Shown: positions 3,316-10,158, counted from the first letter of the stretch. The stretch is 64,000 nt of DNA from an uncultured Planctomycetia bacterium (GCA_903929765.1 CAIYVX010000104.1:2405-66404); one strand, 5' to 3'. Made by a program: numbers and translations. The notes: generated from the sequence alone by a model not told the origin.

Positions 3316-3972
3316 CTACTTCAAGTCAACGCGCATGAGGATCATGGCAATGGCCCGGCCCTGGTAATCGGCCCGGGCCACGGGGATGCCGAGTTCCTTG
3401 AACAGCGTGGGGTAATCGTGGGCAAAGGTGTATTCGTTGATGCTCAGCGACTCGCCCGGCCGCACGCCCACACGGACCTGCTCCTCAAGGCACCAGAGGG
3501 TTTTGCTGGTGACCCGGGCCAGTTCGCGGATGGCTTCGCGGACGTGCTCCGGCGGCACGTGCATCAGCACCCCGTGCGTCACCACCGTCTCAAAAGAGCC
3601 ATCCCGGAACGGCAGCCGCGTGATGTCACCGCAGACCAGCGGCAGGTCGAAGGCCAGTTCCCGGCGGGCCTGTTGGAGCAGGGTGAAACTCAGGTCCAGC
3701 CCGAACAACCGGCAGGGAAAGCCCAGTTGTTCCCGGAAAAAACGCAGGTTCCGGCCGAAGCCGCAACCGACTTCCAGGAGTTCTGTCGGCCGCGATTCCT
3801 GGAGCCGCGCCAGCAGCCAAAAATTCGATTCGTGCAGCTTGCGCTGGTAGGGTTGATGGGTGAAGCGTTCGGCCCATTGTTCCCAGAAGTCGCGCGGGTG
3901 GTAGCCGTGACGGAGGAGATGGACGGTGCCGTTCTTGACGCTGGCCAGCCAGCGGGCGGCGCGGAAGCGCAT
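3316..3972 (-). CDS. Class I SAM-dependent methyltransferase
   Basis: LEVGCGFGRNL glycine-rich motif I and FDLPLVCGDITRLPFRDGSFETVVTHGVLMHV motif II/III pattern. Internal ATG at 3972 was chosen so that it does not overlap the upstream gene; the track ORF extends to 4209. Confidence 0.7.
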   Translation of the reverse strand: MRFRAARWLASVKNGTVHLLRHGYHPRDFWEQWAERFTHQPYQRKLHESNFWLLARLQESRPTELLEVGCGFGRNLRFFREQLGFPCRLFGLDLSFTLLQQARRELAFDLPLVCGDITRLPFRDGSFETVVTHGVLMHVPPEHVREAIRELARVTSKTLWCLEEQVRVGVRPGESLSINEYTFAHDYPTLFKELGIPVARADYQGRAIAMILMRVDLK

Positions 3973-3991
3973 GAGCAGGATTTTCAGGCGG

Positions 3992-4495
3992 TTAATCACG
4001 CCGACATTTCTCCACGAAAGCGGCCATGGCCGCAACGAGGCTTTCTTTGAGCAAGTGCGGCTCGTAGCGCTGGCCCGCCCGACGCCTGGCCATGGCCCGC
4101 TCCAGGGCCGACTCGAAATCGGCCATTTCCAGCACGATTTCGCGCATCGCCGATTCGTCGCGAATGGCCTCGCAGACCTCCACCTGATGATCGTTGGGCA
4201 TCTCGCCAAAACGGGCCTGCCGCGGCACCAGCACTAACGGCAAGCCCAGGCGCCGGGCCGCCAGGATCGGACCGGCCGAGCCGTGCGAGACGGCGACCTC
4301 GCTCTGGCCAAAAAGTTCCTGAAAATGGGCAAAGGGGGCGAAGGCGAAAAACTCCGCAGCATGGCGAGGCTGGTAGGTCGAGTAGCCGATCTGCATAAAG
4401 ACACGATGTTCGGGATGGCGGCCAGCCCAGTCGTCGGCGGCACGCACCAAGCGATCGAACTGCACGCCCGTTCCGACCGTCAGGATCAGATTCAT
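3992..4495 (-). CDS. Alg13-like glycosyltransferase 28 C-terminal domain protein (PssE/Cps14G-like subunit of a bipartite glycosyltransferase)
   Basis: Starts MNLILTVGTG and contains HGSAGPILAARRLGLPLVLVPR, typical of the Alg13/MurG C-terminal domain. The start at 4495 forms an ATGA overlap with the upstream Alg14-like gene. Confidence 0.6.
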   Translation of the reverse strand: MNLILTVGTGVQFDRLVRAADDWAGRHPEHRVFMQIGYSTYQPRHAAEFFAFAPFAHFQELFGQSEVAVSHGSAGPILAARRLGLPLVLVPRQARFGEMPNDHQVEVCEAIRDESAMREIVLEMADFESALERAMARRRAGQRYEPHLLKESLVAAMAAFVEKCRRD

Positions 4496-7596: not shown

Positions 7597-8774
7597 GGCC
7601 GGGCCTCCCCGGCGGCGGGGTCAAGGTCGCGTTTGGCCTGGTCGTGGATCATCTCGAAGACCTCCGGTGTGTAGTCCTGCGGCACTGAGATCTGGCGGCA
7701 GACGGCCCGAGCCAGGCGCTGGGCGAGGCGCGACTCGAACTCGGGCCAGAGCCTGGTCAGCGGGCTGCCGGGATTGGCGTAGTTGTAGGCCAGGAGCATA
7801 GCCCGCAGTTCGTCGGCTTCGAAGAGGGTGCTGATGAAGACCTGCCGGGCGAAGAGGTCGGTCGGGCGCGGTTCGCTGACGGCCGGGCGCGGTCCGTGAA
7901 TCAGCAGGTAGACGGCTCCGAGCGGGGCCGAGTCGATGATCTGCGGGCCGAAGACATCCTGCGACGGGATGCGGGTGAAGAGCGTGATGCGCCGGAGCGT
8001 GGCGAGAGCGAGGGACTTTTTGAGAAAAATCTCGGCCCTCTTGCCCGTCGAGAAGCGCACGCCGAGCAGCCGTTCGACGTCGTAGGTGAACCGGAGGTTG
8101 AAGGGCGTGACGAAGCTGTAGGCCCGATCCTCGGCAAGGATGCAGGAATCGTCGCCGAGGAAATCCCAGCCGCGGCGGGCGAAGTTGACGGCGGTGATGG
8201 TCTTTCCGGTTCCGCCGCGAGCCGGCAGGAGCAGTGAACGGCCGTGGCGGCCGACGGCCGGGGCGTGCAACAGGAGCAGCCCCCGGCGGGCGAGCTGGAG
8301 GCGGATGAGGGAATAAATCGTTTCGCCGGGGAAGACGAGCCGGGCGGTGTAATTGGGGTCGATGCGGACGCGCAGGGGGCCGGTTTCGAGGCCAGTGATT
8401 TCCGTGCGCCAGCGGGCGCTCTTAAACCGCGATTCGTAATAGATGAAGTCCGGCCTGACCCAGTAGCGTCCGTCGAGAACCACCGTGTCGTCGAGGCGGG
8501 GCTGGAACGGGCCGATTTCGACGTCGATATCTGGTTCGGCAGCGGTCTCGGCGGCGCCCGGATCGGAGACGCGGTAATAGCCGAAGGTGGTGTCGAGAAA
8601 CCCGTCGACCAGCGTTCGCCGCTGACGGCGGACACGGAGTCGCAGCAGGTCGTGGAAATTGTACAGGTCGGCGTTCAGACTAGAGCCTCGCTGGGGTCGC
8701 CGACGAGGCCGCCGGGGCCGCCGGTGCGGCCAGTGCGGCAGCCCGCTGGTGGAGCTCCGCGAGCAATCGCCCAT
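7593..8774 (-). CDS. HprK-related kinase-like protein, paralog B
   Basis: LLPARGGTGKTITAVNFARRGWDFLGDDSCIL P-loop region. Its LNADLYNFHDLLRLRV segment aligns with the N-terminus of the 6541..7596 protein. The only in-frame start codon is the ATG at 8774, which gives a 32-aa Arg-rich extension overlapping the 3' end of the upstream radical SAM gene. Confidence 0.5.
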   Translation of the reverse strand: MGDCSRSSTSGLPHWPHRRPRRPRRRPQRGSSLNADLYNFHDLLRLRVRRQRRTLVDGFLDTTFGYYRVSDPGAAETAAEPDIDVEIGPFQPRLDDTVVLDGRYWVRPDFIYYESRFKSARWRTEITGLETGPLRVRIDPNYTARLVFPGETIYSLIRLQLARRGLLLLHAPAVGRHGRSLLLPARGGTGKTITAVNFARRGWDFLGDDSCILAEDRAYSFVTPFNLRFTYDVERLLGVRFSTGKRAEIFLKKSLALATLRRITLFTRIPSQDVFGPQIIDSAPLGAVYLLIHGPRPAVSEPRPTDLFARQVFISTLFEADELRAMLLAYNYANPGSPLTRLWPEFESRLAQRLARAVCRQISVPQDYTPEVFEMIHDQAKRDLDPAAGEARP

Positions 8775-10158
8775 CGTTCGAGTAGTCCGCGGGTTGAATG
8801 TGCAGGAAGGCCCGGGCCAGCGACCGGTGGCTGAGAATGCGCAGGATTTGCCCTGGCCGCAGGTAGAACTTCATGATCGCCCGCCGCTGCCACTTTTCCA
8901 GGTCGTGCGGGCTGAGCGTGGGCGTGCGCAGCACCGGAGCCTTTTGCTTGAAAATGGCCGGATTATTGCACAACTGTGATGGATCAAAATTAGTAATCAA
9001 ACCCTCGGCCACAGCCTTCTCGAAGAGTTCCGTGCGGGGGAACGGCGTGGTGATGGTGAAGATGGCGAAGTCGGTGTTCAGGCGGCGCGAAAAATCGATG
9101 GTCTGCTGGATGGTCTCGGCCGAGTCGGCGTAGTTGCCGATCATGAAGAAGGCCAGCGTGCGCAGGCCGGCCTTCTGGACCGTGTCGAAGGCCGTCAGGG
9201 CCCGGTCGAGGTCGAGGTTCTTGCGCAGCACCTTCTGAATTTTCGGACTGCCGCTCTCGACGCCCATGCCCAGGTGCCAGCAGCCGGCGTCGTGCATGGT
9301 CCGGGCAATGTCGGGGTCGATCGAGTTGGCGTGCGACAAGGCCATCCAGGACAGGTCGATCTTTTCCCGGTGAATAAGGTCGCAGAATTTGAAGACCCGC
9401 TCCTTGGAGGCCGTGAAGTTGTCCTCGCGGAAGAGGATTTCGCGGGCCCCGTAGTCGCGCATCAGCAGCTTGACTTCCTCGATCATCCGCTCGGCGGAGT
9501 TGACGCGGTAGGTGTGGCCGAAGATGTCGTGCGCGCAGAAAATGCAGCGGAACGGGCAGCCGCGGCTGGAGATCATGACCTGCACCGGCCGCCGGCGATA
9601 GACGCGACCGTAGTTGCGGTAGAGCGACATCGGCAGCAGGTGGCGGGCCGGCATCGGCAGATCGTCGAGGTTCTGGGCCAGGGCCCGGTCAGGATTGTGG
9701 ACCAGTTTACCGTCGAGTTTGTAGGACAGCCCGTCGATGGCGAATTGGCCGCGCCGGCCGCCGAGATATTCGCGGCAGAACTCCGAGAAGCTCAGTTCGG
9801 CCTCGCCGCGAACGACGAAATCGACGAACGGCAGGGCCAGCACCCCTTCGGGATCAAGCGTCGGATGGGGACCGCCCAGGACCATGGCCGACTCTGGCCG
9901 CGCCGCCTTGATGATAGCCGCGAAGTCCTCCACCACGACCAGATCGGGCGTCGTGGCCCCCAGGCCGATGATCTGCGGGTTGATTTCCCTGATCCGGTCA
10001 AGCGACTGATCGACGGAGAGTTTCTCCATGCCACAATCGACGATGGCCACGCGGACCCCGTCGCGCTCGAGTTGGGCCCCAAGATACAAAAGGCCCAGAG
10101 GCGGAGTGTTGCTATGGATGCCCGGCGGCACCAGAAGCAGAACGTCGGCTTTTGACAT
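8680..10158 (-). CDS. B12-binding domain / radical SAM domain protein (second copy)
   Basis: B12-binding-like N-terminus and an SRGCPFRCIFCAH CxxxCxxC motif. It is a paralog of 4985..6490. ATG at 10158 (MSKADVLLLVPP). Confidence 0.8.
   Translation of the reverse strand: MSKADVLLLVPPGIHSNTPPLGLLYLGAQLERDGVRVAIVDCGMEKLSVDQSLDRIREINPQIIGLGATTPDLVVVEDFAAIIKAARPESAMVLGGPHPTLDPEGVLALPFVDFVVRGEAELSFSEFCREYLGGRRGQFAIDGLSYKLDGKLVHNPDRALAQNLDDLPMPARHLLPMSLYRNYGRVYRRRPVQVMISSRGCPFRCIFCAHDIFGHTYRVNSAERMIEEVKLLMRDYGAREILFREDNFTASKERVFKFCDLIHREKIDLSWMALSHANSIDPDIARTMHDAGCWHLGMGVESGSPKIQKVLRKNLDLDRALTAFDTVQKAGLRTLAFFMIGNYADSAETIQQTIDFSRRLNTDFAIFTITTPFPRTELFEKAVAEGLITNFDPSQLCNNPAIFKQKAPVLRTPTLSPHDLEKWQRRAIMKFYLRPGQILRILSHRSLARAFLHIQPADYSNDGRLLAELHQRAAALAAPAAPAASSATPARL

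Follow-up and report, generated by a model that had tools for sequence, protein, structure and literature searches.

A recurrent gene cassette that may tailor a lipid-linked glycan combines predicted B12-binding radical SAM enzymes with a pair of PEPCK/HprK-fold P-loop proteins

The characterized HprK-type proteins considered here, HprK/P itself and the HprK-like kinases found in clusters for peptides made by the ribosome and modified after translation (RiPPs), transfer phosphate to a substrate, and the RiPP kinases can add several phosphates, with the phosphate then bearing sugars (PMC8498205, PMC13381572). The ScmC and HprK-related proteins of the same superfamily have no assigned function, and the HpnJ/BchE group of B12-binding radical S-adenosylmethionine (SAM) enzymes is among the least understood of its own superfamily. 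In the HpnI-HpnK-HpnJ pathway to the hopanoid cyclitol ether and with the calditol synthase Cds, a glycosyltransferase loads a hexosamine on a lipid and a radical SAM enzyme is proposed to contract the ring; HpnJ, a B12-binding non-methylase, is proposed to convert glucosamine to a cyclitol on the lipid-linked sugar after the glycosyltransferase step (PMC9204698, PMC13459092). Here we describe a nine-gene cassette in a 64,000-nucleotide stretch of DNA from an uncultured Planctomycetia bacterium (GCA_903929765.1, CAIYVX010000104.1:2405-66404), the whole of which we call the window. Within it, one branch of each of these two families forms a fixed gene triad, consisting of an HpnJ-like radical SAM enzyme (rSAM_u) and two ScmC/HprK-related P-loop proteins (A and B). 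The triad lies within a portable glycan cassette found across phyla and domains, giving both families a testable context, lipid-linked sugar rather than peptide.

The original prediction, drawn from the window sequence, placed seven minus-strand genes at 3316-10158 and described two paralogous proteins resembling the C-terminal domain of HprK between two B12-binding radical SAM enzymes (rSAM_u and rSAM_d), alongside a split Alg14/Alg13 glycosyltransferase and a SAM-dependent methyltransferase. All seven genes are present and could be assigned with Pfam or NCBIfam: hhalign and domain scores bear out the paralogous pair and its position, and matches to PF08660, PF04101 and Methyltransf_25/11 identify its glycan and methyltransferase partners. 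The seven genes are real, but the unit is larger: the unbroken minus-strand gene run that starts at 10158 continues left of 3316 to the window edge, through a flippase gene and a gene for a GT-C-type glycosyltransferase, and the conserved unit comprises nine genes (Table 1).

The reading that we favor, tentatively, is that the cassette tailors a lipid-linked glycan, with A and B acting as a heteromeric phosphotransferase whose activity is linked to radical sugar chemistry. The nine genes would be self-contained, serving to build, tailor, flip and transfer a modified saccharide on a polyprenyl carrier. At the cytoplasmic face, the split Alg14/Alg13 glycosyltransferase would put a sugar on a lipid-linked acceptor. 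A and B would together make up a P-loop phosphotransferase with the fold shared by phosphoenolpyruvate carboxykinase (PEPCK) and HprK, A being catalytic and B having an altered nucleotide/phosphate site, and would use ATP to phosphorylate the sugar intermediate; the phosphate could stay as a decoration or prime the radical step as a leaving group. HpnJ-like rSAM_u would carry out that step, which may be a ring contraction, an elimination or another rearrangement, and rSAM_d and the class I methyltransferase would tailor the intermediate further, probably by C- and O-methylation. The product would be exported by the Wzx-like flippase and moved to its final acceptor by the GT-C enzyme. We infer phosphotransfer because the catalytic residues of A and B are conserved and HprK/P and the RiPP kinases transfer phosphate to their substrates; synteny is the reason for linking the pair to rSAM_u.

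Conservation of the cluster as a unit, which the original prediction had named as a test, is borne out by gene tables and tblastn maps: more than 30 loci of other organisms have the same genes in this order, so the arrangement is not due to chance. Word-indexed searches found ~25 close relatives each of A and B, all from metagenomes or metagenome-assembled genomes (MAGs), and a third such search with a 65-sequence profile added few further proteins. An exhaustive profile search of 1.84 billion representatives returned 219 proteins with E<1e-30 and 641 with E<1e-10. The 185,579 species genomes yielded only 8 loci, from 7 MAGs labeled Phycisphaerae, Omnitrophota, Pirellulales and, by the depositor, Anaerolineales. 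The cassettes of the 'uncultured Anaerolineales' MAGs (L009, L010 and L012) are 61-66 % identical to that of the window; since the closest named relatives are Phycisphaerae, the depositor's labels may be unreliable.

Loci were gathered from the rSAM_u side as well as from A or B. Seeding with rSAM_u gave 21 metagenome loci with orthologues at least 56 % identical; A is directly next in all 21, and where the contig extends beyond A, B is next. Loci seeded with A or B also show the order rSAM_u, A, B, including those of the Phycisphaerae, Omnitrophota and Pirellulales MAGs. Overall, orthologues of rSAM_u are 50-80 % identical and those of rSAM_d 49-73 % identical, the latter following B in most loci. 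A second lineage has nine collinear genes (GT-C, Alg14, Alg13, methyltransferase, flippase, rSAM_u, A, B, rSAM_d), with identities of ~57 % for rSAM_u, 41 % for A and 36 % for B, and the window contains the same nine in rotated order. Two loci are more distant. One (L019; 33 % GC) reads GT2, GT2, B12-binding radical SAM, A, B, GT4, GT4, DUF2206, flippase, methyltransferase. The other (L020), from the cultured methanogen Methanobacterium oryzae, reads B12-binding radical SAM, GT4, Alg14, Alg13, A, methyltransferase, B, flippase, and makes M. oryzae a cultured organism in which the product could be sought. Accessory genes vary among the related loci, including extra B12-binding radical SAM enzymes and methyltransferases, hexapeptide and FemAB-like acyltransferases, DegT, Wzy_C and LPG_synthase_TM, and all are glycan-related.

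Such strict adjacency of rSAM_u, A and B could also mean that A and B are not substrate kinases but assist the radical SAM enzyme as ATP-dependent accessory proteins, whether by loading its cofactor, by reactivating it reductively or by presenting its substrate. Chaperones and reactivases serve other B12 enzymes, and the ScmC cassette of the TIGR04249 description has two radical SAM/SPASM enzymes. The adjacency is kept in L019, in which the radical SAM enzyme is only 27 % identical to rSAM_u, and copies of the B type were seen only in pairs linked to a radical SAM gene. However, the M. oryzae radical SAM gene and A are separated by three genes, the rSAM_u orthologue of an Omnitrophota MAG is 8 kb from A, and two solitary homologues of the A type lie among GT4 genes with no radical SAM gene on their contigs (only 7-9 kb). 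Moreover, near-invariant Lys, Trp and Asn residues in the N-terminal domain suggest a ligand site there, and we know of no member of the PEPCK/HprK fold that acts as a chaperone. We regard an accessory role as somewhat unlikely.

That A and B are instead phosphotransferases is consistent with their sequences. The two are full-length paralogues (hhalign probability 99.9 %, E 2e-34), with a BLASTP E value of 3e-27 over the first half. The HprK/P catalytic core, which consists of a His, the Walker A motif GxxGxGK[ST] and an Asp-Asp pair, is complete in A, for which the orthologue alignment shows invariant His138, A-R-x-G-x-G-K-T (ARGGTGKT in the window, a canonical Walker A), Asp176-Asp177 and a PFNLRFxYD motif. 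In B, His143, G-R-G-x-x-x-K and Asp181-Asp182 are invariant and Lys164 is kept, but Asn replaces the glycine before the Walker A lysine here, and more distant B-types have Arg, Tyr, His, Ser or Phe at that position. Every pair examined has this division, with GxGKT in the upstream copy and N, H, R, Y, S or F for that glycine in the downstream copy, and the solitary homologues have the canonical Walker A.

The proteins of the cassette fall outside HprK/P, the HprK-related kinases A and B, the ScmC equivalog, PEPCK and HpnJ as these families are curated. With the HprK/P model TIGR00679, B scores 18.5 bits against a cut-off of 240, and with PF07475 17.4 bits against 33.3; A matches neither. The original prediction had pointed to catalogued families of HprK-related kinases, but the pair scores 33/31 bits with kinase A (TIGR04352; A is the 31) and 22/22 bits with kinase B (TIGR04355), where both cut-offs are 200, and the best E value to either model among 65 family members scanned is 8e-11. 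To the ScmC equivalog TIGR04249 (cut-off 125), B scores 34 bits and A 21. Precomputed PF27840 (ScmC) matches exist for P0001, which is exactly B, for P0028, which is A, and for orthologues, some of them marked weak. The pair belongs to the same superfamily as ScmC and the HprK-related kinases and is likewise uncharacterized, and ScmC too has a link to radical SAM enzymes, but with scores of 21-34 bits, where the cut-offs are 125-200, the pair stands apart. Its partners differ as well, being B12-binding radical SAM enzymes and glycan genes in place of the two SPASM radical SAM enzymes and PqqD homologue of the SCM cassette. No PqqD family appears in the cassette or in any related locus table, the window operon has no room for a PqqD gene, and the PEP-CTERM context that the original prediction had mentioned for catalogued kinase pairs was not found. 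Our literature searches returned nothing on SynChlorMet, and the matches to ScmC were unrelated acronyms.

Structural models help to place the pair. The AlphaFold models are confident (AF2 pLDDT 90.4 for A and 86.0 for B). When A was compared with the PDB using Foldseek, ATP-dependent PEPCKs came first (E 3e-9, TMq 0.55-0.58, ~400 aligned columns), followed by HprK/P catalytic domains (E ~4e-5, TMq 0.2-0.3); B matched PEPCK at E 7e-6 and also HprK/P. A sequence-profile search of the PDB with A matched only the HprK/P core, over exactly that 48-residue P-loop region. In a profile alignment to E. coli Pck, His232, Lys254-Thr255 and Asp268-Asp269 superpose with the His, Lys-Thr and Asp-Asp of the pair, but hhalign leaves a gap opposite the PEPCK-specific segment GTWYGGEMKKG (Tyr207, Lys212, Lys213). 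Since that segment is absent, we rejected a PEPCK function for A and B, which are also shorter, at ~350 amino acids compared to 540. HprK/P resembles the pair in having a P-loop followed by Asp-Asp and a conserved upstream His, but differs in its N-terminal domain and C-terminal helical region, and A and B are paired, lack an HPr/phosphotransferase system (PTS) context and include the altered Walker A of B. From these scores, models and alignments, we take A and B to be predicted P-loop proteins of the PEPCK/HprK fold that have an intact phosphotransfer core and are neither HprK/P nor PEPCK. They are not ordinary HprK, nor are they unrelated ATPases, the two outcomes that the original prediction had named as counting against it.

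Likeness to HprK/P raises a further possibility, that A and B are HprK/P-like protein serine kinases/phosphorylases and regulate the pathway through one of its enzymes or through the final protein acceptor. At the sequence level, it is indeed the HprK/P catalytic core that the pair resembles, and serines are the residues on which the HprK-like kinases of RiPP clusters act (PMC8498205, PMC13381572). However, the fold of the whole chain is nearer to PEPCK, a small-molecule enzyme, than to HprK/P, and the genes annotated in the related loci include neither HPr nor any PTS family. To our knowledge, regulators are rarely fixed in order with one enzyme across bacteria and archaea. We consider such a regulatory role distinctly improbable.

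Both radical SAM proteins have B12-binding and radical SAM domains above the Pfam cut-offs and carry a CxxxCxxC motif (CPFRCIFC in rSAM_u, CPCRCVFC in rSAM_d), and we therefore predict that they are cobalamin-dependent (class B) radical SAM enzymes. The best NCBIfam match of rSAM_u is HpnJ (TIGR03471), at 203 bits against a cut-off of 577.6, ahead of BchE (175 bits) and the Sden_1168 family (169 bits). The radical SAM enzymes linked to A and B in L019 and in M. oryzae match HpnJ more closely, over the whole of its length, with 450 and 427 bits, three times the score of the next-best family and below the cut-off. By sequence, the closest solved structure is AprD4, a sugar diol dehydratase. The original prediction had raised sugar C-methylation as one option for the two radical SAM enzymes. 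This survives as a candidate but not as the sole reading, because rSAM_u is HpnJ-like and HpnJ is proposed to be a non-methylase (PMC9204698); judged from these similarities, a radical sugar rearrangement by rSAM_u appears at least as likely as C-methylation.

For rSAM_d, the best NCBIfam match is the Sden_1168 P-methyltransferase family (215 bits; HpnJ 175 bits), which could point to phosphonate or P-methyl chemistry, such as a methylphosphonate-type decoration. In the 65-member alignment of the A/B family, one distant A-like protein matches the NCBIfam model for the phosphonate-monophosphate kinase FomB (E 3.4e-10), which is no more than a lead that the A/B superfamily may include, or lie close to, small-molecule phosphate kinases. 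However, 215 bits is far under the cut-off of 575 and barely above the scores of rSAM_d with ApyD, HpnJ and BchE, and what SD_1168 does physiologically is itself not known (PMC9204698). Neither the Pfam-annotated genes in the related loci nor the open reading frames (ORFs) scanned in the window include phosphoenolpyruvate mutase or any other family of carbon-phosphorus pathways. We rejected phosphonate chemistry on this ground and give it almost no credence.

The context of the triad is that of a glycan. Although the Alg14-like and Alg13-like proteins miss the cut-offs of the PssD equivalog (89.8 bits against 110) and the PssE equivalog (71.7 bits against 120), their adjacent, overlapping genes pass those of PF08660 (cut-off 27) and PF04101 (cut-off 22), which identifies them as a predicted split Alg14/Alg13-type glycosyltransferase. 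As in PssD/PssE, Cps14F/Cps14G and Alg14/Alg13, two overlapping genes encode the split enzyme. Orthologues of the Alg14-like protein in related loci are 41-79 % identical, and methyltransferase orthologues always lie after Alg13. Flippase orthologues are 52-57 % identical in the cassettes and 22-23 % in the distant group, and the GT-C fragment is 40-53 % identical to genes with PF13231 (PMT_2) in L001 and other loci. A Wzx-type flippase with a PMT_2/ArnT-like GT-C enzyme recalls the Arn/Gtr-type modules that build, flip and transfer through a GT-C enzyme. By analogy, the cassette would work like these known polysaccharide and glycoconjugate modules (PssD/E, Wzx, ArnT-like GT-C), from which it differs in the addition of two B12-binding radical SAM enzymes and A/B.

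Since RiPP clusters contain both HprK-like kinases and B12-binding radical SAM enzymes, it could be argued that the cassette modifies a phosphorylated, glycosylated and methylated RiPP with a precursor gene that is unrecognized or elsewhere. The two radical SAM enzymes have sub-threshold matches to ApyD and RiPP C-methyltransferase models. Beside the M. oryzae cassette (L020, 348-3125) lie a 41-aa ORF (MRKKINGNKYSKPELVTHGTLKELTQKIGSNQDGISSNYKS) and two further genes, one for a separate Hpr_kinase_C protein of 292 aa and one for NTP_transf_5, and these two match the kinase/NTP-transferase pair of phosphoglycosylated RiPPs (PMC13381572). The lasso/LPP RiPP kinases (PadeK/ThcoK, LppK) are, like A and B, HprK-derived and placed in a biosynthetic cluster, but they depend on a precursor peptide together with an RRE and an NTP transferase, and the window cassette has none of the three. 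Nor does the cassette contain PqqD, a protease or an ABC exporter. The short peptide ORFs suggested by the original prediction were sought by all-against-all comparison of intergenic ORFs of 25-110 aa over 13 loci, which yielded no conserved candidate except a Trm112-like protein in two; the intergenic region at 10159-10392 holds only unconserved ORFs and nothing structured. Given that the partners that stay constant comprise a lipid-carrier glycosyltransferase together with a Wzx flippase and a GT-C enzyme, we find a RiPP product very improbable. The Trm112-like proteins are zinc-ribbon proteins of 50-58 aa and follow rSAM_d in two distant loci (L007, 14363-14515; L014, 14379-14555). Trm112 proteins are activators of class I methyltransferases.

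Several observations weigh against the tailoring scheme with a kinase-like pair that we favor. HpnJ works without a kinase in hopanoid pathways. The cassette includes no phosphatase or phosphate-dependent enzyme and no initiating phosphoglycosyltransferase, and no Pfam family directly matches the GT-C fragment of the window. The score of rSAM_u, just 203 bits, is far from the HpnJ cut-off, and what suggests an A/B heteromer is paralogy and gene coupling. In the literature, we found no paper that describes a triad of a B12-binding radical SAM enzyme with A and B in glycan loci, none that joins HPr kinase with B12 radical SAM enzymes and none on B12-binding radical SAM enzymes in polysaccharide loci. 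The HpnJ and Cds pathways share with our scheme for the cassette the order of glycosylation first and radical rearrangement second, as well as an HpnJ-like enzyme, but have no counterpart of the kinase-like pair, and a methanogen, too, has the cassette arrangement. The window ORFs scanned included no hopanoid genes.

How might phosphorylation and radical chemistry be connected? We can only speculate that phosphate primes a radical elimination or ring contraction. A more specific version, in which the triad is a hitherto unrecognized enzymatic unit and an ATP-dependent PEPCK/HprK-fold heteromer of a catalytic and a degenerate subunit phosphorylates the lipid-linked sugar and the HpnJ-like enzyme then eliminates the phosphate and rearranges or contracts the ring, is in our view unlikely. 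If this version were correct, bacteria and methanogenic archaea would share a radical route, primed by phosphate, that leads to carbasugar or deoxy units of surface glycans, and priming of radical sugar chemistry by phosphorylation would represent a new enzymatic logic for unusual surface sugars. If there is no priming, what remains is a surface-glycan module that recurs in uncultured Planctomycetota and Omnitrophota and is unannotated.

Table 1. Genes of the cassette, in window coordinates
Gene	Coordinates	Strand	Assignment and evidence
rSAM_u	8680-10158	minus	Predicted B12-binding radical SAM enzyme, HpnJ-like; first cassette gene; PF02310 77 bits, PF04055 73 bits
A	7593-8678 (or to 8774)	minus	Predicted PEPCK/HprK-fold P-loop protein; ARGGTGKT...GDDS
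B	6541-7596	minus	Paralogue of A, non-canonical Walker A; GRGGVNKT...SDDF
rSAM_d	4985-6511	minus	Second predicted B12-binding radical SAM enzyme; PF02310 72 bits, PF04055 72 bits
Alg14-like	4492-4983	minus	Putative membrane-anchor half of split glycosyltransferase (PssD/Cps14F-like); PF08660 35.2 bits
Alg13-like	3992-4495	minus	Putative catalytic half of split glycosyltransferase (PssE/Cps14G-like); PF04101 (Glyco_tran_28_C) 36.1 bits
Class I SAM-dependent methyltransferase	3316-3999	minus	Methyltransf_25/11 68/67 bits; GTG start at 3999
Wzx-type flippase	1678-3123	minus	Polysacc_synt PF01943 40 bits; conserved cassette member
GT-C-type membrane glycosyltransferase	~1554 to base 1	minus	PMT_2-like by orthology; gene cut by left window edge

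The genes are tightly packed, as the original prediction had held, but the uniform overlaps of 1-4 nt that it described are not seen throughout. The A/B and Alg14/Alg13 junctions are ATGA/TTGA overlaps, Alg13 and the methyltransferase gene overlap by 8 nt, and gaps of 1 and 29 nt separate rSAM_d from Alg14 and B from rSAM_d, respectively. The methyltransferase, at 227 aa, is the same length as its orthologues. The ATG of rSAM_u is preceded by GGAGG. A 193-nt AT-richer spacer (3124-3315) upstream of the flippase gene may contain an internal promoter. In a promoter/terminator scan, counts were not above the shuffled expectation. For gene A, there is no ATG, GTG or TTG at the start common to orthologues, where the codon (8678-8676) is CTG, and the canonical start that comes next is ATG 8774. 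The start is thus uncertain between CTG 8678, which leaves a 1-nt gap to rSAM_u, and ATG 8774, which produces a 95-nt overlap. Public calls of A (P0028; also in L022 and L023) use a downstream start, giving 296 aa and losing ~65 conserved N-terminal residues.

At the gathering threshold, Rfam matches in the whole window consisted of just two tRNAs at ~36.9 kb, with no riboswitch, and a permissive scan of 10100-10450 gave nothing. Elsewhere in the window, a SAM hydroxide adenosyltransferase gene (SAM_HAT/DUF62; 39567-40358), for which no link to the cassette was seen, has as neighbors an enolase-superfamily gene, an epimerase and a class III aminotransferase. Genes at 10393-17384 were considered as part of the cassette and rejected, being absent from every related locus of other organisms. 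They fall in a same-strand sugar-catabolism block (10393-23645) that lies upstream of the cassette and is unrelated to it, encoding a FucI-like isomerase, GH2, GH172/DUF2961, AP_endonuc_2 (xylose-isomerase-like), a 2-hydroxyacid dehydrogenase, an FGGY kinase, a Zn-ADH and a GFO/IDH/MocA oxidoreductase.

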